Below are positions 1 to 55,599 of a stretch of DNA of 64,000 nt, one piece after another. The position numbers were made by a program, and so were the translations under genes. This stretch comes from Squalus acanthias (lineage: Eukaryota). The notes beneath the pieces were generated by a model. It was not told where the DNA came from. It searched no databases and saw only the letters and a program-made list of their open reading frames with translations. Every line of letters begins with the position of its first letter. The first letter of the stretch is position 1. The DNA lies in the NCBI GenBank assembly GCA_030390025.1, contig CM059440.1, positions 44,640,001-44,704,000 of the forward strand, read 5' to 3'.

Positions 1-210
1 GCTTGTCCTTCCTGGTAGTACAGGCTGTGATGGAGGGTGGGAGCTGCTTGTTGAAGTATCCTTGGTGAGTTGCCGCAGTGCGTCCTGTAGATCATACACA
101 CTGTAGCCACGGTGTGCCGGGGACGGGAGGGGGAGTAGAGTGGGCCTGGTGACAGGGACACCAAGCAAGCAAACTTCTGTGTTCTGGATGATAAGTTTCT
201 TGAGGTGTAC
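1..210 (-). mobile_element. Old, diverged LINE-B 3' RT fragment
   Basis: Resembles 720-930 (ccttggtgagttgccgcagtgcgtcctgtagat...acactgtagccacggt) with many mismatches. Confidence 0.6.
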
Positions 211-2096
211 ATTTCAGAAATACCCAGAAGAAACACTCTGAGGCTTTCCTTTATGGTGCCATCCAACATAGGATTGACAAAGACATCGAATGGGATTGGT
301 GGCAGTGAACCTTACCTCAGTCCTAGAGAGAGGTTGCGAGAGTCTCTCATCCTTACACAAGGACTGGGACCTGCAGTACACATTCTGGATAAAATCTAAA
401 CATTGGCCTTGTACTCCCTTAGCTTTCAGCTTCGTGATGAGGGCCACATTTTTTTTTAATTAGTTCATGGGATGTGGGCGACACTGGCAGGGCCAGCATT
501 TATTGCCCATCCCTAATTGCCCTCAAGAAGGTGGTGGTGAGCTGCCTTCTTGAACTGCTGCAGCCCGTGTGGTGAAGGTACTCCCACAGTGCTGTTAGGG
601 AGGGAATTCCAGGATTTTGACCCAGCGACGATGAAGGAACGGCGATATATTTCCAAGTCAGGATGGAGTGTAACTTGGAGGGGAACCTGCAGGTGGTGGT
701 GCTCACATGCGCCTGCTGCTTTTGTCCTTCTAGGTGGTAGAGGTCATGGTTTTTGGAGGTGCTGCCGAAGAAGCCTTGGCAAGTTGCTGCAGTGCATCTT
801 GTAGATGGTACACACTGCAGCCACGGTACGCCGGTGGTGGAGGGAGTGAATGTTTAAGGTGGTGGATGGGGTGCCAATCAAGCGGGCTGCTTTGTCCTGG
901 ATGGTGTCGAACTTCTTGAGTGTTGTTGGAGCTGCACTCATCCAGGCAAGTGGCGAGTATTCCATCACACTCCTGACTTGTGCCTTGTAGATGGTGGAAA
1001 GGCTTTGGGGAGTCAGGAGGTGAGACACTCACCGCAGAATACCTAGCCTCTGACCTGCTCTTGTTGCCACGGTATTTATGTGGCTGGCCCAGTTAAATTC
1101 CTGGTCAATGGTGACCCCCCCCGGATGTTGAGAGTGGGGGATTCGGCGATGGTAATGCCGTTGAATGTCAAGGGGCGGTGGTTAGACTCTCGCTTGTTGG
1201 AGATAGTCATTGACTGGCACTTCTGTGGCATGAATGTTGCTTGTCACTTATCAGCCCAAGCCTGAAAGTCGTCCAGGTCTTGTTGCATGCGGGCATAGAC
1301 TGCTTCATTATCTGAGGAGTTGTGAATGGCACTGAACACTGTGCAGTCATCAGCGAACATCTCCACTTCTGACCTTATGATGCAGGGAAGGTCATTGATG
1401 AAGCAGCTGAAGATGGTTGGGCCTAGGACACTGCCCTGAGGAACCTTGCAGCGATGTCCTGGGGCTGTGATGATTGACCTCCAACCACCACAACTGTCTT
1501 CCTTTGTGCTAGGTATGACTCCAGCCAGTGAAAGAGTTTTCCCCCTGATTCCCATTGACTTCAGTTTTACTAGGGCTCTTTGATGCCACACTCGGTCAAG
1601 TGCTGCCTTGATGTTTACGGCAGTCACTCTCACCTCACCTCTGGAATTCAGCTCCTTTGTCCATGTTTGTACCAAGGCTGTAATGAGGTCAGGAGCCGAG
1701 TGGTCCTGGCGGAACCCAAACTGGGCATCAGTGAGCAGGTTATTGGTGAGTAAGTGCTGCTGATTGAGAGTAGACTGATGGGGCGGTAATTGGCCGGATT
1801 AGATTTGTCCTGCTTTTTGTGGACAGGACATACCTGGGCAGTTTTCCACATTGTCGGATAGATGCCAGTGTTGTAGCTGTACTGGAACAGCTTGGCTAGA
1901 GGCGCAGCTAGTCCTGGAGCAGAAGTCTTCAGTACGACAACCGGGATGTTGTCGGGGCCCATAGCCTTTGCTGTATCCAGTGCGCTCAGCCGTTCCTTGG
2001 AGTGAATCAAATTGGCTGAAGACTGGCTTCTGTGATGGTGGGGACCTCAGGAGGATGCCGAGAAGGATCATCCACACGACACTTCTGGCTGAAGAT

Positions 2097-3272
2097 TTCC
2101 AAAAGGCATTCGATAAGGTGCCACATAAAAGGTTATTACACAAGATTAGGGCTCATGGGGTTGGGGGTAATATAGTAGCATGGATAGAGGATTGGTTAAT
2201 GGACAGAAAACAGAGAGTAGGGATAAACGGATCTTTTTCAGGTTGGCAGGCTGTAACTAGTGGGGTGCCGCAAGGATCAGTGCTGGGGCCTCAGCTATTC
2301 ACAATCTATATTAATGACCTAGATGAAGTGACCGAGTGTAATGTATCCAAGTTTGCTGACAATACAAAGCTAGGTGGGACAGTAAGCTGTGAGGAGAACA
2401 CAAAGAGTCTGCAAAGGGATATAGATAGACTAAGTGAGTGGGCAGTAAGGTGGCAGATGGAGTATAATGTAGGGAAATGTGAGGTTATTCACTTTGGTAG
2501 GAAGAATAGAAAAACAGAATATTTTTTAAATGGTGAGAAACTTTCAAATGTTGGTGTTCAGAGAGATTTAGGTGTCCTCATGCAAGAAACACAGAAAGCT
2601 AGCATGCAGGTACAGCAAGCAATAAGGAAGGCAAATGACATGTTGGCCTTTACTGCAAGGGGGTTGGAGTGTAAGAGTAAGGAAGTCTTGCTACAATTGT
2701 ACAGGGCCTTGGTGAGACCACACCTGGGGTACTGTGCAGTTTGGTCTTATCTAAGGAAGATACACTTGCCTTGGAGGCGGTGCAACGAAGGTTCACTAGA
2801 TTGATTCCTGGGATGAGAGGGCTGTCCTATGATGAGAGATTGTGTAGAATGGACCTATACTCTCTGGAGTTTAGAAGAATGAGAGGTGATCTCATTGAAA
2901 CATACAAGATTCTGAAGGGGATTGACAGGGTAGATGCTGAGAGGTTGTTTCCCCTGGCTGGAGTGTCTAGAACTAGGGGGCATAGTCTCAGGATAAGGGG
3001 CAGGCCATTTAAGACTGAGATGAGGAGGAATTTCTTCACTCAGAGGGTGGTGAATCTTTGGAATTCTCTGCCCCAGAGGGCGGTGAATGCTGAGTCTTTG
3101 AGTATATTCAAGGCTGAGATCGATAGATTTTTGGACTCTAGGGGAATCAAGGGATATGGAGATCGGGCGGGAAAGTGGAGTTGAGGTCGATGATCAGCCA
3201 TGATCTTATTGAATGGCAGAGCAGGCTCGAGGGGCCGAATGGCCGACTCCTGCTCTTATTTCTTATGTTCAT
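2097..3272 (+). mobile_element. CR1 LINE 3' portion nested in LINE-B
   Basis: [36 protein letters not shown]; ttcttatgttc tail; aagat duplicated at 2092-2096 and 3273-3277. Confidence 0.95.
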
Positions 3273-4787
3273 AAGATGGTTGCAAACGCTTCAGCCTTGT
3301 CTTTTGCACTCACGTGCTGGGATCTGCCATCACTGAGGATGGGGATATTCATAGAGCCTCCTCCTCCCATTAGTTGTTTAATGGTCCACTACCATTCACA
3401 ACTGGATGTGGCAGGACTGCAGAGCTTTGATCTGATCCGTTGATTGTGGGATCGCTTAGCCCTGTCTATAGCATGCTGCTTCCGCTTTTTAGCATGCATG
3501 TAGTCCTGTGTTGCAGCTTCCCCAGGTTGGCATCTCATTTTTAGGTACGCGAGGTGCTGCTCCTGGCATGTTCTTCTGCACTCCTCATTGAACCAGGGTT
3601 GGTCCCCTGGCTTGATGGTAATGGTGGAGTGAGGGATATGCCGGGCCATGAGGTTACAGATTGTGGTGGAATACAATTCTGCTGCTGTTGATGGCCCACA
3701 GCGCTTCATGGATGCCCAGTTTTGAGCTGCTAGATCTCTTCTGAACCTATCCCATTTAGCACGGTGGTAGTGCCACACAACACGATGGAGGGTGTCCTCA
3801 GTGTGAAGATGGGACTTCGTCTCCACAATGATTGTGCGGTGGTCACTGCTACCAATACTGTCATGGAGAGATGCATCTGTGACATTTAGATTGGTGAGGA
3901 CGAGTTCAAGTAGGTTTTTCCCCTCGTGTTGGTTCTCTCACCACCTGTCACAGGCCCAGTCTGGCAGCTATGTCCTTCAGGACTCGGCCAGCTCGGTCAG
4001 TAGTGGTGCTATCAAGCCACTCTTAATGATAGACATTGAAGTCCCCCACCCAGAGTACCTTCTGTGCCCTTGCTACCCTCAGTGCTTCTTTCAAGTGGTG
4101 TTCAACATGGAGGAGTACTGATTCATCAGCTGAGGGAGGGCGGTAGGTGGTAATCAGCAGGAGGTTTCCTTGCCCATGCTTGACCTGAAGCCATGAGACT
4201 TCATGGGGTCTGGAGTCAATGTTGAGGACTCCCAGGGCCACTCCCTCCCGACTGTATACCACTGTGCCGCCACCCCTGGCGGGTCTGTCCTGCCGGTGGG
4301 ACAGGACATACCCAGGGATCGTGATGGAGGAGTCTGGGACATTGGCTGAAAGGTATGATTCTGTGAGTGTGAGTATGACTATGCCAGGCTATTGCTTGAC
4401 TGGTCTGTGGGACAGCTCTCCCAATTTTGGCACAAGTCCCCAGATGTTTGTGAGGAGGACTTTGCAGGATGGACTGGGCTGGGTATACCGTTGTCATGTC
4501 CCTAGCCGGTGCCGAGGTGGGTGGTCCATCCGGTTTTATTCTTATTGTTTTTCATCGCGGTTTGTTACAACTGAGTGGCTTGCTAGAGGGCAGTTAAGAG
4601 TCAACCACATTGCTGTGGGTCTGACGTCACATATAGGCCAGAACAGGCAAGGATGGCAAATTTCCTTCCCTAAAGGATTTTAGTGAACCAGATGGGTTTT
4701 TACGAGAATCCAGTAGTTTCATCGTCACCATTACTTACACTAGCTTTTTATTCCAGATTTATTTAATTAACTGAATTTAGCTGCCAT

Positions 4788-5776
4788 AGAGTCATAGAGA
4801 TATACAGCACAGAAAGAGGCCCTTCGGCCCATCGTGTCCGCTCCGGCCATCAAGCCCTGTCTATTCTAATCCCATTTTCCAGCACTTGGTCCGTAGCCTT
4901 GTATGCTATGGCGTTTCAATTGCTCATCTAAATGCTTCTTGAATGTTGTGAGGGTTCCTGCCTCTACCACCCTTTCAGGCAGTGAGTTCCAGATTCCAAC
5001 CACCCTCTGGGTGAAAAAGTTTTTCCTCAAATCCCCTCTAAACCTCCTGCCCCTTACCTTGAAACTATGCCCCCTGGTTATTGACCCCTCTACTAAGGGG
5101 AAAAGTTCCTTTCTATCTACCCTATCTATGCCCCTCATAATTTTGTACACCTCAATCAGGTCCCCCCTCAGCCTTCTCTGCTCTGAGGAAAACAACCCCA
5201 GCCTGTCCAGTCTCTCTTCATAGCTGAAGCGCTGCAGCCCAGGTAACATCCTGGTGAATCTCCTCTGCACCCTCTCCAATGCAATCACATCCTTCCTGTA
5301 GTGTGGCGACCAGAACTGCACACAGTATTCCAGCTGTGGCCTAACTAGCGTTTTGTACAGCTCCATCATAACCTCCCTGCTCTTATATTCTATGCCTCGG
5401 CTAATGAAGGCAAGTATCTCATATGCCTTTTTAACCACCTTATCTACCTGTCCTGCTGCCTTCAGGGATCTATGTACATGCACACCAAGGTCTCTCTGAT
5501 CCTCTGTCCTTCCTAGGGTCCTACCATTCATTGTGTATTCCCTTGCCTTGTTCGTCCTCCCAAAATGCATCACCTCACACTTTTCAGGGTTAAATTCCAT
5601 TTGCCACTGTTCTGCTCATCTAACCAACCCGTCTATATCGTCCTGTAGCCTGAGGCTTCCCTCCTCGCTATTTACCACTCCACCAATTTTCGTGTCATCT
5701 GCGAACTTACTGATCATACCTCCTACATTCATGTCTAAATCATTAATGTACACTACAAACAGCAAAGCACCCAGCA
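4788..5776 (-). mobile_element. CR1 LINE 3' portion nested in the LINE-B 5' head
   Basis: ORF 4866-5600 (LVRPQLEYCVQFWSP, RVVGIWNSLP); TSD tgccat at 4782-4787 and 5777-5782. Confidence 0.95.
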
Positions 5777-7699
5777 TGCCATGGGAGGATTTGAACTCAT
5801 GTCGCTGGATTATTAGTCCAGACCTCTAAATTACTAGTCCATTAACATAACCACGATGCTACCGTTCCAGTGAGGCACCATATCAAAAGGCTTATGAAAC
5901 CTGTGTGAGCCTCACACGATTCCTTGCTGATTGCTTGTGCAGGCCTTCAAAGCATCTGTTACACAAGCCATGACAACCCCCAAGAGCCAGCTTAAGAACC
6001 ATTAATATCAGTAAAATGCCACACACGCAGATTTTGAGACAGTTTGGGGGACAACTAAGTTGAAGTGCCAGAGGCAGTAAAAGCACTGATTTCCATCAGC
6101 AAATGGTGGCCAGGTAGACAGCGCTTGGGAAACACTGAATGCCAGCGTGAAACACTGATCATTGGCATGTATGAACTATGGGCCACTAGGGTACGGTCCT
6201 GAGGAATGCAAACTACCAGGCACGGGAATCGGCTGAAGATGCAAAGGGAAAAATTTGCTAGGTTTTCATCACGCAATGGATTAGAAAAGCAGACTTAAGT
6301 CACATTTCTGAATTAAATTGAATATCGTTGCTGTGGGTGGAGGAAGAGGCAAGACCAGCCTGAAAAACTGTTCCCAGGGAAGCAAGCCTGTTTCTGGATG
6401 CAGAGGCTGATCAAGCTGAGGAGGCAAAAATACAAGTGACATTATTTACACCAAGAGTGTGGCTGACTCTCGCTTAAAAAAAACCCAGTTAAATGCAGAA
6501 ACCTGGCTTTGTGTTTTGGATGCCCTCTGATTTCTCTGCTCTACTTTTTTCTATGTCCTTTGGTCCCTCAAATAGCGGCTCCAACACTGAGGCAAAACTG
6601 TGTCTATTTCCAACCCAGCACCAAATGCAGGGCCATAAATTAACTTCATTCCCAAGCGAGTCTTTTCTCGGGGCTCTGGAGGCAACAGAAAGACAGATTA
6701 GCATCTACACGGTGGTGTGGTATTGTAGTGATGAAGATTCTGGATGAGCAACCCACCACGGCAAGTGAATTCAATGAATGTGTGGGTTGGCACGAGAAAG
6801 AATTTCCATAAAATCCCAAGTGGTTCACTTCAGAGAACCGACCACCCCAGCTAGTCTGGCCCACACGTAACTCCATTCCCACACTACATGGGGGCAGAAC
6901 TTGGTCCTCGTTGTGCTCGTTTTACAGGGTGCGAAGAGGACCAATTTGGACATTACTGCCAAAACACTGCCCGTTCACTCTGAAAGCAAATTGTTGGCAA
7001 CGATCAAAATGTTTGCTCCATATCACAAGGTCCAATTTTCTTCATAGATGTCTGGAAAAAAATTAATTTAAAAAAAGTAATTAATTAATTTCTTCAAAAA
7101 AACAGCATAATACAGAAAAAGTATTCACAGCCTGGCCCGTCTCACAGTTCCTTAACATGGGCTTAGACAAAGAGGAGGCCTTGGTCTCCAGTCCGCCAAA
7201 TTCATGGGCACAAGTACCACCTCCTCCTGTGCTGGAATTGGTTGCAGGACCATTGTCGCTGTGTTCTCCAATCCCTCTTCATCCTCCCCATTGGCCCTGG
7301 GGCGAATTAACCATGCAGTGGTCACATCAAGTTAGGTTCATGGGCCCAGGAAAAAAAACCTGAGGCCTGGTAGCTTCAGCTCAGAATGAGGGGCCGGAAT
7401 CCGGTTGGGGAACACATTTAGAAAATAAACTCAATTCATTAATCAAAAGAACAAATTGAAAACTATTTTGATTTAAAAGATCATGTTGTAAAGCTTCCTT
7501 AAGTGCAGCTCGTACATACATGCACCGAGTTTGTATAATGGCCATGGTAATGGTGCTCAACGTGGCTCTGCATGGCTGATAGTGTTTGGGGCCTCGGACT
7601 CTCGGGTTATTGGCGAATTTCTCAACTACCTCAATGAGTGCCATGAATTGGCATCCAGAATCCTGACTGCTCACTCAAAACTCAAGCGGTTGGCAACTC

Positions 7700-8863: not shown

Positions 8864-9544
8864 AACATCACAACAACAGATGATCTGGTCATTATCACAT
8901 TGCTGTTTGCGGGAGCTTGCTGTGCACAAATTGGCTGTCGCGTTTCCTACATTACAACAGTGACTACGCCTAAAGTACTTCATTGGCTGTAAAGGGCTTT
9001 GGGATGTCCTGAGTTTGTGAAAGGTGCTATAGAAATGCAAGTCTTTCTTTTGTTTCTCTGGGTTGAGAGGAGGGGAAACTCACCAGGGTTCCCTGTCCTG
9101 ATCGCTACCCCGCCGCCTCTGCCAGTGTGGGCAGGATTAGGCTCCACACACTGCTTATAGGCAGCTTGCCGTTTGGGGAGGGCAGGGAATCGAGCAGGGC
9201 ACATACTATGTGGGCTTGCAGCAGCATCTTAAAGGGGAGGGCTGAAAAGATCAGCTCAACAGAGCAGCAGATTAAAGGAGCAGGGAAATATAAAGAGTGC
9301 AGCAAGTTAAACTGAGGAAAGCTTTTCAGTTTAAAAGTCCCAAAGAGAATGAAGAAACAGTCCTGCCTCCAGCTTTACCCAAATGCAGTTTCTGATTCTT
9401 TTAAGTAGAGCTGCAAATGGCCACCTCCATGCCTATACCACCCACGGTTTACGAGTGGGTTGAGCTGGCAGTGCCGATTGACACCAAAATTGCATCATTT
9501 GACACTTATTTAAATATATTAATGAGGCCCCTGCCTGCCCTACC

Positions 9545-10685
9545 TTCGACAGTGCAGCGCTCCCTCAGTACTGCCCCTCTGACACTGCAGCACTTCCTCA
9601 GTACAGCCCATCCGACAGTGCCGCGCTCCCTCAGTACTGCCCCTCCGACAGTGCAGCGTTCCCTCAGTACTGCCCCTCCAACAGTGCAGCCCTCCCTCAG
9701 TACTGACCCTCCAACAGTGCAGCCTTCCCTCAGTACTGCCCCTCCGACAGTGCAGCACTCCCTCAGTACTGCCCCTCCGACAGTGCAGCACTCCCTCAGT
9801 ACTGCCCCTCCGACAGTGCAGCACTCCCTCAGTACTGCCCCTCCGACAGTGCAGCACTCCCTCAGTACTGCCCCTCTCAGTACTGCCCCTCCGACAGTGC
9901 AGCACTCCCTCAGTACTGCCCCTCCGACAGTGCAGCACTCCCTCAGTACTGCCCCTCCGACAGTGCAGCCCTCCCTCAGTACTGCCCCTCCGACAGTGCG
10001 ACGCTCCCTCAGTACTGACCCTCCGACAGTGCGGCGCACCCTCAGTACTGTCCCTTCGACAGTGCAGCGATCCTTCAGTACTGCCCCTCCGACAGTGCGG
10101 CGCACCCTCAGTACTGCCCCTCCGACAGTGTGGCGCTCCCTCAGTACTGCCCCTCCGACAGTGCGGCGCTCCCTCATTACTGACCCTCCGACAGTGCAGC
10201 GCTCCCTCAGTACCGCCCCTCCGACAATGCAGCGCTCCCTCAGTACTGCCCCTCTGACACTGCAGCACTCCCTCAGTACCGCCCCTCCGACAGTGCGGCG
10301 CTCCCTCAGTACTGCCCCTCCGACAGTGCGGCGCTCCCTCAGTACTGCCCCTCTGACACTGCAGCACTCCCTCAGTACCGCCCCTCCGACAGTGCAGCGT
10401 TCCCTCAGTACCGCCCCTCCGACAGTGCAGCGCTCCCTCAGTACCGCCCCTCCGACAGTGCAGCGCTCCCTCAGTACTGACCCTCTGACAGTGCGGCGCT
10501 CCCTCAGTACTGCCCCTCCGACAGTGCAGCGCTCCCTCAGAACTGCCCCTCCGACAGTGCAGCGCTCCCTCAGTACTGCCCCTCCGACAGTGCAGCGCTT
10601 CCTCAGTACTGCCCCTCCGACAGTGCAGCGCTTCCTCAGTACTGACCCTCCGACAGTGCGGCGCTCCCTCAGTACTGCCCCTCCA
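9545..10685. repeat. 33-bp minisatellite (ccgacagtgcagcgctccctcagtactgcccct)n, ~34 units
   Basis: Direct tandem repeats with no spacers; explains the repetitive ORFs 9417-10736 and 9540-10367. Confidence 0.97.
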
Positions 10686-11261
10686 GTTCAGAGGCGGGAG
10701 TGCTGCCCCCGTTTAATCGGACCGGCGGGTCTCTAGCGGTGAGTCAGTGAAAGGTTTTCTTCCCGTTACGGCCCTTGTTTAGCGATGTAAGCGGTGCGGC
10801 AGCAAGTTTAAAATCAGCCCCATTGAGTTTCTCTCTTGTTTCATAACACAGTGAGAAGCTCTGATTACTCTCCTGGTCTATTTGTCCCTCCGAAGTCCTT
10901 CGTTACCCTACCTGCAAAATTGAATTTGTGCATTTTTTGAACTCTTCAATAAGCTGCACCCAGTGGAGCTCCCGCAATGGGTGCAGCAGGTAGAAGCATC
11001 ACCTCGTTAACTACTAAACCATACAGCCCAGGGCCCGGGCTGCTCCCCCGCTCTGTGCTGAGATTGCTGAATCCAGCCGCACAGCAGCTGAGATGTTACG
11101 ATTGGCGTCAGCATCTTGGGCTCGGGAGGGGGTTGCAAACAAAAAAAACGCCGCGGATCCTGCTCCCGATCGTTAATTAGTGACCCTGCAGGTCAGTGTG
11201 ACCGTGATGTGCAAACAGACTTGGGCTCAACTCTCTGGTCCTGGTGGTTGAAGACTGTCGA

Positions 11262-19327: not shown

Positions 19328-19659
19328 TTCACGCTGCCATTTGAAAGATAACAAGATGTGGGTGGATGAAGACGAACGTTCAGCCCATTTGATGCCATCT
19401 TTCCAGAATACCAATCCAAGCATCTTATAACTTAAAAATCAGAGGAAAAAAGGCACATTTCCACCTCGGGGCCTCTGCTCGTTTTTTGGACTGCCCTAAT
19501 TAATGCCAGTACTGATTTTCAGATTATCCTCAGTCCTTACAGACCTGTTACTGCTCCAATAGAGCCGTGCACTGATGCTTTGTTACAGTGTGCACACCCA
19601 GACTAGATTGATGGAACTGGACGATAGAGGACTGGTCCTAGCGCTGGAGCCCTCCAGAT

Positions 19660-20021
19660 TGGCACAGGAGCCCTCACTACTGGGGCTGGAGTCCTCACTA
19701 CTGGGGCTGGAGTCCTCACTACTGGGGCTGGAGTCCTCACTACTGGGGTTGGAGTCCTCACTACTGGGGCTGGAGTCCTCACTACTGGGGTTGGAGTCCT
19801 CACTACTGGGGCTGGAGTCCTCACTACTGGGGCTGGAGTCCTCACTACTGGGGCTGGAGCCCTCACTACTGGGGCTGGAGTCCTCACTACTGGGGCTGGA
19901 GTCCTCACTACTGGGGCTGGAGCCCTCACTACTGGGGCTGGAGCCCTCACTACTGGGGTTGGAGTCCTCACTACTGGGGCTGGAGCCCTCACTACTGGGG
20001 CTGGAGTCCTCACTACTGGGA
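19660..20021. repeat. 21-bp minisatellite (ggggctggagtcctcactact)n, ~17 units
   Basis: Direct tandem repeat; gives (LGLESSL)n and (PAPVVRT)n ORFs. Confidence 0.97.
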
Positions 20022-20067
20022 CTGGTGTTGGTACAGATTGACCTTGTTATTTACACAGGAGGTCAGT

Positions 20068-21322
20068 AGAATCATAGAATGGTTACAGCACAGTAGAAGG
20101 CTATTCGGCCCGTCAAGCCCGTGCCGGCTCTCTGCAAGAGCACTTCAGCTAATCCCACTCCCCCGCCCTTTCCCCCGTAGCCCTGCAAAAAAAATTTCCT
20201 TCAGGATTTTTTTTCATTCGTTCATGGGATGTGGGCATCGCTGGCAAGGCCGGCATTTATTGCCCATCCCTAATTGCCCTTGAGAAGGTGGTGGTGAGCC
20301 GCCTCCTGGAACCGCTGCAGTCCATGTGGTGAAGGTGCTCCCACAGTGCTGTTAGGGAGGAAGTTCCAGGATTTTGACCCAGCAACGATGAAGGATCGGC
20401 GATATACTTCTAAGTCAGGATGGTGTGTGACTTGGAGAGGAACCTGCAGGTGGTGGTGCTCACATGTGCCTGCTGCCCTTGTCCTTCTAGGTGGTAGAGG
20501 TCACGGGTTTGGGAGGTGCTGCCGAAGAAGCCTTGGCGAGTTGCTGCAGTGCATCTTGTAGATGGTACACACTGCAGCCACTGTGCGCCGGTGGTGGAGG
20601 GAGTGAATGTTTAAGGTGGTGGATGTGGTGCCAATCAAGTGGGCTGCTTTGTCTTGGATGGTGTCGAGCTTCTTGAGTGTTGTTGGAGCTGCACTCATCC
20701 AGGCAAGTGGAGAGTATTCCATCACACTCCTGACTTGTGCCTTGTAGATGGTGGAAAGGCTTTGGGGAGTCAGGAGGTGAGACACTTGCCGCAGAATACC
20801 CAGCCTCTGACCCGCTTTTGTTGCCACAGTATTTATGTGGCTGGTCCAGTTAAGTTTCTGGTCAATGGTGACCCCCAGGATGTTGATGGTGGGGGATTCG
20901 GCGATGCTAATGCCATTGAATGTCAAGGGGCGGTGGTTAGACTCTCACTTGTTGGAGATAGTCATTGCCTGGCACTTCTGTGGCGCGAATGTTACCTGCC
21001 ACTTATCAGTCCAAGCCTGAATGTCGTCCTGGTCTTGCTGCATGCGGCCATGGAATGCTTCATTATCTGAGGAGTTGTGAATGGCACTGAACACTGTGCA
21101 GTCATCAGCGAACATCCCCATTTCTGACCTTATGATGGAGGGAAGGTCATATCCAATTCCCTTTTGAAAGCCGTGATTGAATCTGCCTCCGCCACCCTTT
21201 CAGGCAGTGCATTCCAGATCTTAACCACTCGCTGCGTAAAAAAGTTTTTCCTCACGTCGCCTTTGGTTCTTCTGCCAATCACCTTAAATCTGTGTCCTCT
21301 GGTTCTCGACCCTTCCGCCAGT
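20068..21322 (-). mobile_element. CR1 3' end split by a LINE-B insertion
   Basis: CR1 tail at 20068-20205 resumes at 21150-21322. Confidence 0.88.
20207..21150 (-). mobile_element. LINE-B 5'-truncated copy
   Basis: ORF 20501-20926 ILGVTIDQKLNW...VMEYSPLAW; highly similar to 449-1400. Confidence 0.95.
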
Positions 21323-30379: not shown

Positions 30380-31225
30380 CGACTTGCATTTATATAGCGC
30401 CTTTCACAACCACCAGGCGTCCCAAAGCGCTTTACAGCCAATGAAGTAACTTCACTGTTGTAATGTAGGAAACGCGGCAGCCAATTTGCGCACAGCAAGC
30501 TCCCACAAACAGCAATGTGATAATGAGCAGATAATCTGTTTTAGTGATGTTGATTGAGGGATAAATATTGGCCCCAGGACACCGGGGAGAACTCCTCTGC
30601 TCTTCAAAATAGCGGCCATGAGATCTTTTACGTCCACCTGAGAGAGCAGACGGGGCCTCGGTTTAATGTCTCATCTGAAAGTTGGCACCTCCGACAGTGC
30701 AGCAGGCTCCCTCAGTACTGACCCTCCGACAGTGCAGCCCTCCCTCAGTACTGCCCCTCCGACAGTGCAGCAATCCCTCAGTACTGCCCCTCCGACAGTG
30801 CAGCACTCCCTCAGTATTGCCCCTCTGACAATGCGGCGCTCCCTCAGTACTGCCCCTCCGACAGTGCAGCGCTCCCTCAGTACTGCCCCTCCGATAGTGC
30901 AGCGCTCCCTCAGTACTGCCCCTCCGACAGTGCAGCGCTCCCTCAGTACTGCCCCTCCGACAGTGCAGCGCTCCCTCAGTACTGCCCCTCTGACAGTGCA
31001 GCACTCCCTCAGTACTGCCCCTCCGACAGTGCGGCACTCCCTCAGTACTGCCCCTCCGACAGTGCGGCACTCCCTCAGTACTGCCCCTCCGACAGTGCGG
31101 CGCTCCCTCAGTACTGTACTGCAGTGTCAGCCTAGAATTTTGTGCTCAAGTCTCTGGAGTGGGACTTGAACCCTCAACCTCCATGACTAAGAGGCAAGGG
31201 TGCTGCCCACTGAGCCGTTGGCTGA
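30380..31225 (-). mobile_element. Full Deu-domain SINE with internal 33-bp array (~13 units, 30690-31118)
   Basis: tRNA head (ggctcagtgg A-box, ggttcaagtcc B-box), array, Deu core and L2-type tail in order. Confidence 0.9.
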
Positions 31226-35949: not shown

Positions 35950-36440
35950 AGATCATAGTCGTGGTTATATTATTGGACTAGTAATCCAGAGGCCTGGACT
36001 AATGATCCAGAGACACGAGTTCAAATCCCATCACAGCAGCTGGGGAATTTAAAATTCAGAATAAAAAGCTAGTATCAGTAATGGTGACCATGAAACTACC
36101 GGATTGTCGCAAAAACCCAACTGGTTCACTAATGTCCTTTAGGGAAGGAAATCTGCCGTCCTCACCCGGCCTGCCCTAATTTATCCTTATGTGGATCGGT
36201 GTCAAATTTTTTGTCTTGGGGCATTTTACAACGTTAAAGGCGCTTTATAAATACAAGTTGTTGTTGTTGTTATATGTGACTCCAGACCCACATGTGGTTG
36301 CCTCTTAACTGCCCTCCGAGATGGCCTAGCAAGACACTCAGTTGTATTCAAGAAGGTGGCTTCTTGAGGGCAATTAGGGATGGGCAATAAATGCTGGTCT
36401 TGCCGGCGACGCCCACATCCTGTGAATGAATAAAAGAAAA
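35950..36440 (+). mobile_element. tRNA-headed SINE = LINE-B 5' head/UTR fused to LINE-B 3' tail; contains a nested L2 tail (~36177-36270)
   Basis: B-box gagttcaaatcc 36017-36028; body matches reverse complement of 4567-4781 and 5783-5860; tail matches 449-555. Confidence 0.9.
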
Positions 36441-40447: not shown

Positions 40448-40461
40448 TGGTGACCACAACG
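40448..40461 (+). promoter_or_regulatory. Primer-binding site, tRNA-Trp-like
   Basis: tggtgaccacaacg vs TGGTGACCCCGACG expected for tRNA-Trp (12/14). Confidence 0.75.
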
Positions 40462-40486
40462 CTCAGAACGTATTCCAAGCACTGCA

Positions 40487-41095
40487 ATGGCGGACACGAA
40501 CGCAGTTTTCGTGAAACAGCCAGAGTTTTGGGAAAACCAGCCCGAAGCCTGGTTTCTCCAAGCCGAATCTCGCTTCCGGCTGCAACGCATCACCACAGAT
40601 GGGACGAAGTACGACTATCTCGTCATATCACTCAGTAGCGCCACAGTTTCGAAGGTTTGGACAATGCTGCAGAACCCACCAGAGGAAGGCAGGTACGCAC
40701 ATCTCAAGACAGCGCTCCTTAAAAAATTTACGGCCTCGGCATACCAGCGAAACTGCCACCTCCTCGACCTTCCAGGCCTCGGTGATGCCTCACCGTCAGA
40801 CCTCCTCTCCCACATGCTGTCCCTCACCGACGAGAGCCCACCCGGATCCCTCTTCCGCACGCTGTTCATCCGCCAGCTCCCTTTCAGCATCCGCCCAGCG
40901 ATCGTGGCGTCCGGCCTCACGAACCTGGAAGCCCTGGCCGATGAGGCCGACAAGCTGCTGTCCGCTCACTCCAGCCGCGACGTCACTCCGGACCTGGCAG
41001 CCAATGCCTGGGCGCGCCCCTCATCGGCCAGCACGCGGCCACAAGGGCCTGCCACCAGGCCCACGGGGCCTTCACGCCCCACTAACCCAGGGCCA
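40487..41095 (+). pseudogene. gag: Gypsy gag (N-terminal part; frameshifted just before the Cys-His box)
   Basis: KQPEFWENQPEAWFLQAESRF...KYDYLV...YAHLKTALL...PSDLLSHM. Confidence 0.9.
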
Positions 41096-44000
41096 CTGTC
41101 ACTACCACGCACGGTTAGGCACCAGGGCACAACGGTGCACACCTCCCTGCTCTTTCAAGTCCGCCCCCGTACCAGCCCCCGCGATGGCCGTGGGCCACGC
41201 GGGCTCCCTGCTGTTCGTCATGGATGACAAAACCGGCCGCCGGTTCCTGTGCAACACTGGGGCTCAGCACAGCATCATCCCGGCCTCCTCCCTCAACATC
41301 CAAAAGGGTGAACGAGGACCGGCGCTGGCTGCTGCTAACGGCTCGGAAATCCGGACGTATGGCACCCGGACAGTCACCCTCGACCTCGCTGGTCACCGCT
41401 ACCGATGGGAGTTCATCACTGCCAAGGTGCTCTCCCCTCTCATCGGCGCAGATTTCCTGTGCGCCCACGGCCTACTGGTAGACATCCCTCGTCACCGCCT
41501 CGTGGACATGAACACCATGTCCCCCATCCTGGGCGCCATGGCCCCTCTTCAACCCGCCGACATGGCGTCACAGTGCCACGCCCGGGCCACGGATGACTAC
41601 TCGGCACTCCTGGCCGAATTCCCGGCCCTTACCAATCCGACCTTCTCCGCGGAGGCCGCCAAACACGGGGTGGAACACTTCATCCCCACCACAGGCCCCC
41701 CAGTGTACGCCCACAGGCTGGACCCGACCAAACTGGAGATCGCGCGGACCGAGTTTGCCACCATGGAACAGCTCGGCATCATCCGCCGCTCCAACAGTCC
41801 CTGGGCCTCCCCACTCCACATCACCCCCAAACCAGGCGGAGGTTGGCGCCCCTGCGGGGATTACCGCCGCCTCAACGACACCACCACCCCTGATCGGTAC
41901 CCCGTGCCGCACATTCAGGACTTCTCGGCTAGACTGGCCGGCCGCTCAGTCTTTTCCAAGGTCGACCTGGTGCGCGGCTACCACCAAGTCCCCGTCCACC
42001 CCGCGGACGTCCCCAAGACGGCCGTAATCACCCCCTTCGGCCTGTTCGAGTTCCTGCGGATGCCCTTCGGCCTCAAAAATGCGGCCCAGGCATTCCAACG
42101 GCTCATGGACTCGGTCCTTCGGGACGTGAAGTTCCTGTTCGTCTACCTGGACGACATCCTGGTAGCCAGTTCCTCCAAGCAGGAACACCTCGAACACCTT
42201 CGCATCCTGTTCGGGCGCCTCAGCGACCACGGGCTCATCCTCAGCCCAGCCAAATGTCAGTTCAGCCTGGACAAGATCGACTTCCTCGGCCACCACATCA
42301 CCCATGCTGGGGCCATTCCCCTGCCCACCAAGGTGCAGGCCGTCCAACAATTTCCCCGCCCCACCACCATCAAAGGCCTCCAGGAGTTCCTCAGGATGGT
42401 GAATTTCTATAACCGCTTCATCCCCAAAGCGGCGTCCCTCATGAGGCCCCTGTATGAAGCCCTCTGGGGCGGGAGCGGCAAGATGGCGGTCGAATGGACG
42501 GCAGACGCATCCGCCGCCTTCGACTCCACCAAGACCGCACTCGCCAACGCCACCCTGCTCGTGCACCCACGGCCCAATGCCAGTGTAGCGCTCACCACGG
42601 ACGCCTCCGACCACGCGGTCGGCGCCGTGTATGAGCAGTGGGTCGACGGCGCCTGGCAACCACTTGCCTTCTTCAGCCGCCAACTACGCCCCCCGGAGGT
42701 CAAGTACAGCACCTTCGACCGCGAGCTCCTCGCACTGTTCCTGGCGGTCCGCCATTTCCGGTTTTTGCTTGAGGGCCACCCCTTCACTGCGTTTATCGAC
42801 CACAAGCCCCTGACATTCGCAATGGCAAAGACAACCGACCCCTGGTCCGCCAGGCAGCAGCGCCAGTTCGCGGCAGTGTCCGAGTTCACCACGGACATCC
42901 AACACGTCTCCGGCCGAGACAATGTGGTAGCCGACTGCCTCTCCCGCCCCGCCATCCACGCCGCATACCTGGCAGTCGACTACGCTCAACTCGCAGCAGA
43001 CCAGATCACCGACCCTGATCTGCTCTCCACACCCACCAACCTACCAGGGCTACGCCTGGCCGACGTCGCCTGTGGCCCGACCGCAGTCACGGTCAAGTGC
43101 GACATATCCCTATGTCAACCTCGGCCCGTCGTCCCAGCGTCCTGGCGCCGCCAGGTATTCGACATTCTCCACAACCTCTCCCACCCCGGCGTCTGCACAT
43201 CCATCAAATTGGTAGCCAACCGCTTCGTCTGGCGCGGCCTTCGCAAGGATGTGCGTACTTGGGCCAACTCCTGCCTAGCCTGCCAACGGGCCAAGGTACA
43301 GCAACACACGAAAGCACCCCTCGAGGAGTTTACCGTCCCCTCGCGGAGATTCGACCACATCCACGTGGACATCGTCGGGCCCCTGCCGCCGTCGCAAGGC
43401 CACACGCACTTGCTGACCATCGTTGACTGCACCACACGTAGGCCCGAGGCAATTCCACTAACCTCTACCACCACCGCCGACATCGCCAGAGCCTTCGTCA
43501 GCACCTGGGTCGCACGGTTCGGCGTCCCCTCCGACATGACGTCGGACAGAGGTCCGCAATTTACCTCTGAACTCTGGACCGCCGTCGCACGCAATCTCGG
43601 GGTGACCATTCACCGCACCACAGCGTACCACCCCCAAGCCAACGGACTGTGTGAGCAGTTCCACAGATCCTTGAAGGCATCTCTTCGAGCCAGCCTCCAG
43701 GACGGCGCCTGGACCGACCGACTTCCATGGGTCCTCCTCGGCCTGCGCACCGCGGTTAAAGAAGACCTCCACACATCGGCAGCAGAGCTCGGGTACAGTC
43801 AGCCGCTGCGCATACCTGGCGAGTTCCTGCCCACCGCCACGACACCCTGGTCAGCCGACCAGCAACGCCACGACTTCGCCTCACCGGCGCTGCAGTTCGC
43901 CCCGGTGCCCATTGCCCGACACGGCGAATCCACCTCACACGTCCCACTAAACCTGCACCAGGCACGGTTTGATTTCGTCCGGCACGACGCCCACCGCGGA

Positions 44001-44333
44001 CCCCTTCAACCCCTGTACTACGGGCCCTACAAGGTGCTACAGGCTGGGGACAAATTTTTCACCCTGCAAGTGGGCGACAGGACCGAAAAAGTGTCGGTTG
44101 ACCGACTCAAGCCAGCACACTCGGAGTCCGGTGAGCAGGTCCCTGTAGCTCGTCCACCTCCACGCGGCCGACCTGCCCTCAAGCCGGTTCACCCGGCTGC
44201 TCCACGCCCGGCTGTTCCACGTCCACCGGCGTCCTACAAGAGCCGCTCCGGCGGCCCATCAGACCGCCGCACCGTCTCGTCCACACCTCCTAAGCGGATT
44301 CTGGGGGGAGCTGTGTGGCGGATCGCCACCTAA
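41090..44333 (+). pseudogene. pol: Gypsy gag Cys-His box + pol (protease, RT, RNase H, integrase, GPY/F motif)
   Basis: CHYH..C...C; LCNTGA (catalytic D->N); SPWASP, GDYRRLN, MPFGL, YLDD; TDAS, RELLA, DHKPL; HHCC, VDIVGP, SDRGPQF; GPY...VDRLKP. Confidence 0.95.
44303..44310 (+). promoter_or_regulatory. Polypurine tract
   Basis: ggggggag three bases before the 3' LTR. Confidence 0.8.
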
Positions 44334-48272: not shown

Positions 48273-50528
48273 TGGCCCGTAATTTGCGCTCAGTAGCAAA
48301 GCAAAGGCGCTCGCCCCGAAGAAAGCTTCCCACAACAATCTTGCAACCTCTGTGGCGACAAGTTTGGCTTTTCCGACGTTCAGTGTCGTGTAATGGGGAA
48401 TCCCTAGCGCGAGCTGCTGTGACATCAACAAGCTGTCTGAGCAGCCAATCACAGTGCAGAATTCTCACAGTCCAGGAACCAGGAAGTGAAGAAACTCCTT
48501 CTATTCAGACTTTTTAAAAATGTTACAGAACAAAACAAAGATTGGGGCCCTCACTGGGGAAAAGGTAAATTTGAAATAAATATGAACAAACTTTTAAAAA
48601 ATACAATTTTTTTAAAGTTTCTTAACAATTGTAATTTTTATTAAAATGGAGAAATTTGACACTCCACAAAATTAAAATTCGTTGTTCAGGGCCATAACAA
48701 TTCTGATCCGTCAACACGCTGTTAAAACACCTAATCCAACAAGGTCTAACTTTTAAAGGGGTTTTTAAGAACTAGCCGCGCCTCTAGCCAAGCTGTTCCA
48801 GTATAGCTACAACACTGGCATCTATCCGACAATGTGGAAAACTGCCCAGGTATGTCCTGTCCACAAAAACAGGACAAATCCAACCTGGCCAATTACCGCC
48901 CCATCAGTCTACTCTCAATCAAAGTGATCAGCAAAGTGATGGAAGGTGTCATCGACAGTGTTATCAAGTGGCACTTACTCACCAATAACCTACTCACCAA
49001 TGCTTAGTTTGGGTTCCGCCAAGACCACTCAGCTCCAGACCTCATTACAGCCTTGGTCCAAACATAGACAAAGGAGCTGAATTCCAGAGGTGAGGTGAGA
49101 GTGACTGCTCTTGACATCAAGGCAGCATTTGACCGAGTGTGGCATCAAGGAGCCCTCATAAAACTGAAGTCAATGGGAATCAGGGGGAAAACGCTCCACT
49201 GGCTGGAGTCATACCTAGCACAAACAAAGATGGTTGTGCTGGTTGAAGGTCAATCATCACAGCCCCAGGACATCGCTGCAGGAGTTCCTCAGGGCAGTGT
49301 CCTAGGCCCAACCATCTTCAGCTGCTTCATCAATGACCTTCCCTCCAACACAAGGTCAGAAGTGGGGATGTTCGCTGATGACTGCACAGTATTCAGGTCC
49401 ATTTGCAATTCCTCAGATAATAAAGCAGTCCATGCCCGCATGCAGCAAGACCTGGATGACATTTAGGCTTGGGCTGATAAGTGGCAAGTAACATTCGCGC
49501 CACACGAGTGCCAGATAATGACTATCACCAACAAGCAAGAGTCTAATCACCGCCCTTTGACATTCAATGGCTTTACCATCGCCGAATCCCCCAACATCAA
49601 CATCCTGGGGGTCACCATTGACCAGAAACTTAACTGGACCAGCCACATAAATACCGTGGCAACAAGAGTAGGTCAGAGGCTGGGTATTCTGCAGCAAGTG
49701 TCTCACCTTCTGACTCCCCAAGACCTTTCCACCATCTACAAGGCACAAGTCAGGAGTGTGATGGAATACTCTCCACTTACCTGGATGAGTGCAGCTCCAA
49801 CAACACTCAAGAAGCTCGACACCATCCAGGACAAAGCAGCCCGCTTGATTAGCACCCCATCCACCACCTTAAACATTCACTCCCTCCACCACCGGTGTAC
49901 CGTGGCTGCAGTGTGTACCATCTACAAGATGCACTCCAGCAACTCACCAAGGCTTCTCCGACAACACCTCCCAAACCCGCGACCTTACCACCTAGAAGGA
50001 CAAGGGCAGCAGGCGTGTGGGAACACCACCACCTCCAATTTCCCCTCCAAGTTACACATCATCCTGACTTAGAAGTATATCGCCGTTCCTTCATCGTCGC
50101 TGGGTCAAAATCCTGGAACTCCCTCCCTAACAGCACTGTGGGAGCATCTTCACCACACGGACTGCAGTGGTTCAAGAAGGTGGCTCATCGCCACCTTCTC
50201 GAGGACAATTAGGGATGGACAATAAATGCTGGACTTGCCAGCAATGACCACATCCTATGAATGAATTAAAAAAAAGATATTACTGCGGAAATGTCGAAGT
50301 TTTCATCAGTTTCACTGATTTCCCTGATTGCCAGCTATGGTGGGTGGGGAGGGTGGGGGGGAAGCACAGCGCAGCCCAGGTTGGAGCAGTGAATGACTGA
50401 CCGCAACTTCAGGATTTCCGTGTTAGGATGCGCCTGCGCTACATCCTGAAGTTGCGGTCAGTTTCAAAGGGGTAATAACGGCGAATGCTGTTTGTTCGCT
50501 GTTATTACCCACCGCAAATTCCGGGCCA
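48273..50528. mobile_element. MITE split by a LINE-B insertion
   Basis: TIRs tggcccgtaatttgcg / cgcaaattccgggcca. Confidence 0.8.
48771..50275 (+). mobile_element. LINE-B 5'-truncated copy (RT and tail)
   Basis: [35 protein letters not shown]; premature stops. Confidence 0.95.
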
Positions 50529-53549: not shown

Positions 53550-54958
53550 AGAACTTGCCTTCCACAACCTCAGGACGCCCCAAAGCACTTTACAGCCAAT
53601 GAAGTACTTTTTGAAGTGCAGTCACTGTTGTAATGTAGGAATCGCAGCAGCCAATTTGTGCACAGCAAGATCCCACAAACAGCAATGTGATAACGACCAG
53701 ATAATCTGTTTTCGTGATGTTGATTGAGGGATAAATATTGGCCCCAGAACACCGGGGCGAACTCCCCTGCTCTTCTTCGAAATAGGGCCAGGGGATCTTT
53801 TACATCCACCTGAGAGCAGACGGTTTAACGTCTCATGCGAAAGACGGCACCTCCGACAGTGCAGCACTCCCTCAGTACTGCCCCCCCGACAATGCGGCGC
53901 TCCCTCAGTACTGCCCCTCCGACAATGCGGCGCTCCCTCAGTACTGACCCTCTGACAGTGCGGCGCTCCCTCAGTACTGCCCCACTGACAGTGCGGCGCT
54001 CCCTCAGTACTGCCCCTCCGACAGTGCGGCGCTCCCTCAGTACTGCCCCTCCGACAGTGCGGCGTTCCCTCAGTACTGCCTCTCCGACAGTGCGGCGCTC
54101 CCTCAGTACTGACCCTCCGACAGTGCAGCACTCTCTCAGTACTGCCCCTCCGACAGTGCAGCAATCCCTCAGTACTGACCCTCTGACAGTGCGGCGCTCC
54201 CTCAGTACTGACCCACCGACAGTGTGGCGCTCCCTCAGTACTGACCCTCCGACAGTGCAGCGCTCCCTCAGTACTGACCCTCCGACAGTGCAGCACTCCC
54301 TCAGTACTGCCCCTCCGACAGTGCGGCGCTCCCTCAGTACTGACCCTCCGACAGTGCGGCGCTCCCTCAGTACTGACCCTCTGACAGTGCGGCGCTCCCT
54401 CAGTACTGCCCCTCCAACAGTGCAGCGCTCCCTCAGTACTGCCCCTCCAACAGTGTGGTGCTCCCTCCGTACTGCCCCTCAGACAGTGCGGCATTCCCTC
54501 AGTACTGCCCCTCCGACAGTGCGGCGCTCCCTCAGTACTGCCCCTCCGACAGTGCAGCGCTCCCTCAGTACTGACCCTCTGACAGTGCGGCAATCCCTCA
54601 GTACTGACCCTCTGACAGTGCGGCGCTCCCTCAGTACTGACCCTCCGACAGTGCAGCGCTCCCTCAGTACTGACCCTCTGACAGTGCGGCACTCCCTCAG
54701 TACTGACCCTCTGACAGTGCGGCGCTCCCTCAGTACTGACCCTCCGACAGTGCAGCGCTCCCTCAGTACTGACCCTCTGACAGTGCGGCACTCCCTCAGT
54801 ACTGCCCCTCTGACAGTGCAGCACTCCCTCAGTACTGCCCCTCCGACAGTGCAGCGCTCCCTCAGTACTGACCCTCTGACAGTGCGGCACTCCCTCAGTG
54901 CTGCCCCTCTGACAGTGCGGCACTCCCTCAGTACTGCCCCTCTGACAGTGCGGCACTC
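53550..54958 (-). mobile_element. Deu-SINE with ~33-unit 33-bp array (53850-54958)
   Basis: SINE tail and core run directly into the array. Confidence 0.93.
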
Positions 54959-54973
54959 AATGGGGTACATTAC

Positions 54974-55024
54974 CTGCTCAGCTCCATTTCCCAACATTCT
55001 CCGAGGAAATGTTCCAAAATCTTT
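54974..55024 (-). CDS. Putative 51-nt exon (KDFGTFPRRMLGNGAEQ)
   Basis: Strong donor cag|GTaatg, ttgttctttttatcgaggcctAG acceptor, phase 0/0. Confidence 0.45.
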
Positions 55025-55599
55025 CTAGGCCTCGATAAAAAGAACAAATCTGCTAAGTCAGTTCTTGGTCTTGGAGAGCTTGTATTTTGAGCGTGTTTTC
55101 ACTGGTTTCTGCTCAGAGTTCCTGTTGTGGGATTGTTGGGTTTTAAAATTAGTTTTATCGCATTTTATTTGTTGCTTTTTGCCATATTTTCTGTTTTAAC
55201 CACCACTGCATTGATGGGAGCTCCAATTATATTTTAAAACATTTTTATGTAAATTAAACTTTTCTCTGAATTTTTGTGTTCAATCAAGTTGAGGGATGAG
55301 AGAGCTGGGAATCCAACTCTTCCTATTTCAGGAACCCAGTTTCAGCACCAAGCACTCCCAGCTGAGGTAAAGCACACGCAGATACAGAGTGAAGCTCCCC
55401 CTACGCTCAACAACAATATGCCCAGCCCCAACATCAAAAGCGCACTTCCTGCAGCGGTGTGACATGTTTCCCATTCCCCACACCAGCCATCCTGCAGCTT
55501 GAGAAAAACTGCCAATTGTTGACGAATGAGGGACAGTTTAGTGCTATTGCTCAATGCCCACTAGAAATTGAATCAAGACGGCCCAGGTCAGTTCACAGA

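Follow-up and report, generated by a model that had tools for sequence, protein, structure and literature searches.

A LINE of Squalus acanthias with a tRNA-like head and a sense strand poor in T-runs: a candidate for transcription by RNA polymerase III

The window analysed here comprises 64,000 nucleotides (nt) of Squalus acanthias DNA (assembly GCA_030390025.1, contig CM059440.1, positions 44,640,001 to 44,704,000) and contains copies of LINE-B, a long interspersed nuclear element (LINE) with a tRNA-like head in front of its coding frame. We propose that LINE-B is an autonomous LINE which RNA polymerase III (Pol III) would transcribe over its whole length, and give this reading a probability of about 0.55. 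Our analysis established the anatomy of the element, the position of the head at the 5' terminus and a short interspersed nuclear element (SINE) that shares head and tail with it. It also showed that T-runs are depleted in a strand- and family-specific manner. This wide avoidance of T-runs, taken together with the terminal tRNA-like head, tips the balance somewhat towards Pol III.

A search of the 3.7-Gb genome with the LINE-B 5' region returned 6,059 candidates, of which 40 were scored. The majority sequence was derived from 22 contiguous copies among the 39 fetched, while 17 non-contiguous copies were left out. Each of the 22 copies is 94–97% identical to the majority, in agreement with the caution of the original prediction that the copies are homologous and thus no independent tests. 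The majority of 3,302 nt consists of the tRNA-like head, a 328-nt 5' region, a single frame, a 3' stem-loop and an A tail. The frame has 972 stop-free codons (family positions 330-3245), encodes an endonuclease and a reverse transcriptase (RT), and has its first in-frame ATG at codon 285; the real copy L032 retains an open stretch of 727 codons. No open reading frame 1 (ORF1) is present. As in apurinic/apyrimidinic (AP) endonuclease-type LINEs, AP endonuclease and RT lie in one frame, copies are 5'-truncated and carry an A tail, and long terminal repeats (LTRs) are lacking. In the region around positions 330-460, a TAA at 327-329 stands directly before the frame, which begins with an Arg-rich leader. 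The in-frame ACG at 339, a candidate near-cognate start codon, is ATG in 5 of the 22 copies, due to either CpG decay or a start variant, and an out-of-frame ATG is found at position 365.

Two motifs in the head agree with the A- and B-box consensus. A tRNA-derived head lies at the 5' terminus as in SINE2 elements, and 44 such heads linked to the LINE were found. The second property of SINE2, to be short and non-coding, applies to the 425-nt partner only and not to LINE-B with its 3,302 nt and 972 codons. Of the 39 copies chosen by their 5' region, 26 begin no more than 5 nt from position 1. Among copies chosen by the endonuclease region alone this holds for 8 of 29, the rest being truncated or interrupted, and the 40-nt flanks of these 29 copies showed no alternative shared 5' sequence. 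The first 330 nt have 44% GC and a CpG observed/expected (o/e) ratio of 0.38, and are hence not a CpG-island promoter. Single heads did not fold into a cloverleaf as judged by folding energy (z 0.5 and -0.6), and target-site duplications of at least 6 nt were found in none of nine copies with a matched head (2 of 11 unmatched).

Among the LINE copies two head subfamilies (family positions 1-100) are distinguished by linked changes at positions 13, 21, 26 and 32. The changes at 13 and 32 preserve pairing in the D-stem and the anticodon-stem in the form of G-U, and all four leave the box cores untouched. A lower mismatch in the A and B cores (4.1% and 6.2% vs 9.9%) was not counted, since deletions and variants between subfamilies confound it. 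Copies L048, L067, L301 and L315 carry a 3' T-run in place of, or ahead of, the A tail; this run may stem from the target site or be what is left of a terminator. L034, L042, L056 and L061 are LINE-B copies with internal deletions of differing breakpoints, longer than the SINE, and L042 has the identical deletion twice in tandem. A second young family (L175/L176) was rejected, as its near-identical copies cluster on C10 and C3630 and were read as duplications.

The partner SINE of about 425 nt consists of LINE-B positions 1-328 joined to the LINE 3' tail. In 18 of 20 copies its 5' part runs to position 328 and in one to 325, and the window copy carries an insertion; the junction is fixed in the genome copies. 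The SINE indicates that the LINE-B protein acts in trans.

Members of the lineage were placed in the window as follows (family positions refer to the majority).

5776..5868, minus strand: tRNA-like head belonging to the full-length copy of LINE-B, 88% identical to family positions 2-99
5851-5861: A-box-like motif of this head, with one core change in the window copy
5787-5798: B-box-like motif of this head
4782..5775 (ends approximate), minus strand: CR1 insertion between LINE-B head and body, filling the gap from family position 99 to family position 105, with a CR1-type frame at 4866-5615
3273..4781, minus strand: LINE-B 5' half with the remainder of the 328-nt SINE-shared region and the frame start, 93.8% identical to family positions 105-1621
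4023-4388: AP-endonuclease domain in the 5' half (Pfam Exo_endo_phos, E 7e-4, below the cut-off)
2097..3272, plus strand: CR1 insertion that interrupts the frame of LINE-B, whose two halves overlap by 5 nt
459..2096, minus strand: LINE-B 3' half with RT, C-terminal part, 3' stem-loop (z -2.8) and A tail, 92.2% identical to family positions 1617-3302
1244-1798: RT domain in the 3' half (Pfam RVT_1, E 3e-16)
20216..21150, minus strand: 5'-truncated LINE-B copy, family positions 2368-3302, without sense-strand runs of four or more T
48768..50275, plus strand: 5'-truncated LINE-B copy with A tail, family positions 1808-3302, likewise without such runs (Pfam RVT_1, E 2e-20, at 49068-49466)
35961..36436, plus strand: partner SINE with head and 5' region (family positions 16-328) and LINE 3' tail, insertion near 36180-36270
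2..120, minus strand: fragment of an older wave of the LINE-B lineage, 76% identical to the young majority

The original prediction had claimed that runs of four or more T (T4) are absent from the LINE-B sense strand at 460-2096, 3273-4781 and 20221-21150 (minus strand) and at 48771-50275 (plus strand). All four stretches indeed contain none, and their sense A4+ runs are frequent, as had been stated (7, 11, 2 and 6 in the same order). The stretches encode pieces of endonuclease and RT. The first two are the halves of a single full-length copy that extends from 5868 to 459 on the minus strand and is interrupted by the two CR1 insertions. Its 5' half has neither T4 runs nor terminator-like sites (defined below), and head and both halves together have no T4 run in 3,249 nt. 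The CR1 families of the window and of fetched loci are rich in sense T4 runs, at 2.9–4.8 per kb, again as had been stated. A consensus containing T4 runs had been named as grounds for giving the idea up; the family majority has none, along with seven T3 runs, 19.7% T and a TT o/e of 0.71. In 126 young segments 24 T4 runs were counted in 199,859 nt (0.12 per kb). These fall on 21 positions, each in one or two of the 33–85 covering segments, and being private to so few copies they arose after insertion. The lack of T4 runs is significant against a base shuffle (4.0 expected, P 0.017) and against codons drawn from four-fold-site composition with the protein fixed (3.7, P 0.011). The mutation rate at 39 sites one step from T4 was not used, as it is confounded by hidden CpGs and subfamilies.

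The depletion extends beyond T4. Our CpG-aware synonymous null is a shuffle that holds CpG context and keeps protein and codon use fixed. Against this null TT (74 vs 83.1, P 0.003), T3 (5 vs 9.2, P 0.03) and four T within 5 nt (1 vs 5.4, P 0.04) are rare. For comparison we used metagenome relatives of 24–41% identity, 71 of 80 loci having frames of at least 400 amino acids and nine with shorter frames being dropped. The LINE-B ratios for TT, T3, four T in 5 nt and four T in 6 nt lie below the minimum of these 71 relatives, which together have 1,626 T4 runs (1,550 expected), with none at zero. CR1, Penelope, Gypsy-like, RTE-like and L2-like elements are at or above their own CpG-aware nulls. 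The second ground named for giving the idea up, a depletion no greater than base and codon composition explain, therefore applies in part: the T4 count alone stays within the codon and dinucleotide expectation, TT and TTT lie below the CpG-aware one, and the count of terminator-like sites (P 0.07 under the strictest null) is borderline.

PMC3141230 describes T4, T3VT, TVT3 and T2[AC]T2 as terminators of human Pol III in vitro. Counting these terminator-like sites gave one in the sense strand of the 3,302 nt, a weak T2CT2, vs 32 in the antisense strand. A base shuffle predicts 11.4 sense sites, and none of 3,000 shuffles was as low as one. LINE-B is thus free of internal T4+ runs, and nearly so of non-canonical terminators, on the non-template strand, as expected for a type-2 Pol III unit. 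Its density of 0.3 sites per kb compares with 7.4 for CR1, 3.9 for Penelope, 2.4 for Gypsy-like, 2.35 for RTE-like, 12.2 for L2-like and 3.3 for a further LINE family, and with at least 4.7 for the 71 relatives. The real copy L032 has no site vs 3.9 under the strictest null (P 0.005).

A check for T avoidance at codon junctions had also been proposed, and its outcome leans towards the original prediction. At synonymous third positions T is rarer before T, with odds of 0.36 compared to a following C (P 0.008); compared to a following A or C the odds are 0.48 and the support only borderline (P 0.054). The lowest odds among the 71 relatives are 0.54, and CR1 has 0.94. Uncorrected odds of 0.23 (P 1e-4) were inflated by CpG decay and are superseded by these values. 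Phe makes up 1.9% of the LINE-B protein vs 3.2–7.5% in the 71 relatives. Since the strict nulls fix Phe and codon use, selection acting through either would be hidden from them. Avoidance of polypyrimidine tracts was rejected as a cause, because TC and CT are not low (o/e 1.18 and 1.16).

An older wave of the lineage was represented by 33 loci with 51 segments, which contain 0.69 T4 runs per kb. Over 692 codons its majority shares 87.5% identity with that of the young copies, again without T4 runs and with a TT o/e of 0.70. Of the codon changes between the waves in this stretch, 117 are synonymous and 108 non-synonymous, so that the frame appears to have been conserved.

The selection for Pol III read-through put forward in the original prediction would best account for the junction and T-run depletion, while the T4 count by itself lies within codon-aware nulls. 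Under our preferred reading TFIIIC would bind the boxes and Pol III would start at the first base. An internal T4 or interrupted T-run would end the RNA ahead of the 3' stem-loop needed by RT, so that only master copies free of such runs would keep spreading; termination, as in SINEs, would take place beyond the A tail in the flanking DNA. Lacking a cap, the RNA would be translated without AUG (no in-frame ATG precedes codon 285) via a cap-independent route. The protein would reverse-transcribe its own RNA in cis, plus the SINE, by target-primed reverse transcription without ORF1. PMC2666806 reports that RNAs made by Pol III need no more than ORF2p to retrotranspose, and the missing ORF1 of LINE-B fits such mobility; the same paper uses T4 runs as an argument against Pol III for SVA. 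In its fullest form the reading would make LINE-B an autonomous "coding SINE", an all-Pol III element of 3.3 kb with uncapped, AUG-less translation, its frame including codon junctions and Phe content long shaped by terminator avoidance. For this fuller version we would put the chances slightly short of even.

Several results weigh against transcription by Pol III. T4 = 0 is unremarkable against a dinucleotide shuffle (1.5 expected, P 0.19), a synonymous shuffle (1.8, P 0.11) and the CpG-aware null (1.1, P 0.31), and an RTE-like family of the same genome with 17.1% T has just one T4 run in 2,548 nt. The zero alone is therefore weak evidence. Five T in 8 nt are not significantly rare (4 vs 8.1, P 0.17, CpG-aware null), the majority frame has one terminator-like site vs 3.7 under the strictest null (P 0.07), and the further LINE family has a weak T3 dip of its own (7 vs 9.8, P 0.07). 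All P values are uncorrected for many overlapping statistics, and the motif set was picked after the first results. Because isolated T3 is inactive as a terminator according to PMC3141230, avoidance of TT and T3 exceeds the strict need of the terminator rule. The head matched the Rfam tRNA model in one of four copies scanned, L067 (E 0.028, 28.8 bits, just under the gathering cut-off of 29), the other three being unlisted. Three of four older-wave T3 runs are common to the young family, so that the older wave is not independent, and no copy with a head was found among the older-wave loci. AATAAA occurs at the 3' end and 45 nt before it, compatible with polyadenylation of a Pol II transcript (three further AATAAA lie within the first 360 nt). 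Finally, Pol III transcripts are generally non-coding according to PMC2666806 and PMC5786205.

The T4 zero within codon-aware nulls, the nearly T4-free RTE-like LINE and the AATAAA near the 3' end would fit an ordinary LINE-B that is transcribed by Pol II, or by host read-through, and whose SINE 5' end had been captured by template switching. The head would then be a passenger or function in the SINE only, and the lack of T-runs would stem from low T, CpG decay and codon bias of the lineage. The exact coincidence of frame opening and end of the SINE-shared part (328/330) is what a fusion predicts, and LINEs, bipartite ones included, are regarded as very likely Pol II transcripts in PMC5786205. 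Against this reading, the shortage of TT, TTT and interrupted runs seems to go further than codon use and CpG context predict, and it is confined to one strand and to LINE-B. The low Phe content, the lack of any other 5' end in the endonuclease-picked copies and the absence of a CpG-island promoter also speak against a Pol II element, which we consider unlikely but the most serious competitor. A two-polymerase cycle, in which Pol III makes the template RNA and capped Pol II read-through of other copies the protein, would cover the head, the avoidance of T-runs and the difficulty that an RNA without a cap has to be translated, and the trans action indicated by the SINE suits it. Against it, the frame that looks conserved between waves is easier to understand with cis action, and the lack of an in-frame ATG helps capped RNA no better; we regard it as improbable. 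RNase L cuts after UU/UA, and selection against U-U steps by a host nuclease or U-rich decay elements would agree with a depletion that reaches down to TT and with a low TA (o/e 0.64), yet it is very improbable, since TT o/e is 0.94–1.32 in CR1, RTE-like, Penelope and Gypsy-like elements and 0.87, above its own codon null, in the L2-like one, and TA is equally low or lower in other element types of the genome.

Named homologs were found only in a shark (71% identity) and a ray (79%). The shark gene model P0003, called aldo-keto reductase, includes a stretch resembling LINE-B (71% across one third of the query), probably a mis-annotation and possibly a case of exonization. Upstream DNA of the metagenome relatives, short for many of them, showed no tRNA head; two of the 80 loci gave ARAGORN calls on the antisense strand inside frames, which are not heads. 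None of seven pattern matches in viral contigs was a relative. Four contig sets of presumed RNA origin cover the element but carry no information on start, strand or level, and no record containing it is labelled as RNA. In an RT tree of 28 rows, with partly filled CR1 rows, a long L2-like row and references named by their motifs, LINE-B groups with six unnamed proteins of 930–1043 amino acids (100/99 support). It stands apart from the CR1 and L2-like RTs of the same genome and so outside the vertebrate CR1/L2 clade.

Other features of the window touch the subject less. The Gypsy-like LTR element at 40454-44333 (plus strand), seemingly near-intact with a 1,272-codon pol-type frame after a 257-codon gag-like frame, served as a counting control only. 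An element at 60194-62139 (plus strand, 17.7% T, two sense T4 runs) is presumably Penelope-like, judged by its motifs (RT, then a GIY-YIG-type region). Three arrays share the same tandem unit of about 33 nt (9405-10736, 30642-31169 and 53622-55028), and a 21-nt array lies at 19563-20069. ARAGORN found no tRNA gene in the window. Outside it, L302:457-2443 (minus strand) represents a low-copy LINE family of another lineage with 19 genome candidates.

Structurally LINE-B is a variant of known elements; evidence that Pol III transcribes it and that the RNA is translated would put it in a category of its own. If a family numbering thousands of candidate copies encoded protein from a Pol III unit, the division into Pol II LINEs and non-coding SINEs would no longer hold. 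Such a family would provide a natural multi-kilobase Pol III template and a case of cap-independent translation in a vertebrate, link ORF1 loss to polymerase choice, and mean that SINE heads and bodies could arise by simple internal deletion. In the open literature, as far as the available parts of PMC5499810, PMC4824008, PMC3747384, PMC11481361, PMC10294476 and PMC7245038 go, SINEs with tRNA heads and their partners are described, but a tRNA-headed LINE with a coding frame did not turn up; such an element may be listed in Repbase or Dfam, or described in subscription papers or supplements, all outside this scope.

With CR1-group LINEs LINE-B shares AP endonuclease and RT, the 3' stem-loop and 5'-truncated copies. 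It is 22% identical to a CR1 C-terminus. Its C-terminal motifs suggest that it may be CR1-Zenon-like. Bivalve CR1-Zenon elements average 5.2 kb (PMC10294476), in contrast to 3.3 kb for LINE-B. The tRNA-derived SINEs of cartilaginous fishes (SINE2; SacSINE1, CmiSINEs, HE1) have the same 5' tRNA-like head with A and B boxes and a LINE-shared 3' tail, their tails being L2-2_CM, CR1-4_DR-like or HER1 (PMC5499810, PMC3747384 and PMC4824008). The 425-nt partner is a SINE of this general kind, whereas LINE-B has a coding frame of 2.9 kb between head and tail. In bipartite SINE/LINE pairs an ORF1-less LINE is likewise accompanied by a short derivative of its 5' and 3' ends; PMC5786205 names RTE, Ingi, Vingi and R2 as the only clades with ORF-less bipartite forms and holds that SINEs cannot encode protein. 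LINE-B is not an RTE, being about 31% identical to the RTE-like protein. In the bipartite pairs described there it is the non-autonomous partner to which the small-RNA head is added, the LINE being regarded as a Pol II transcript; in the present case the head sits on the coding LINE.

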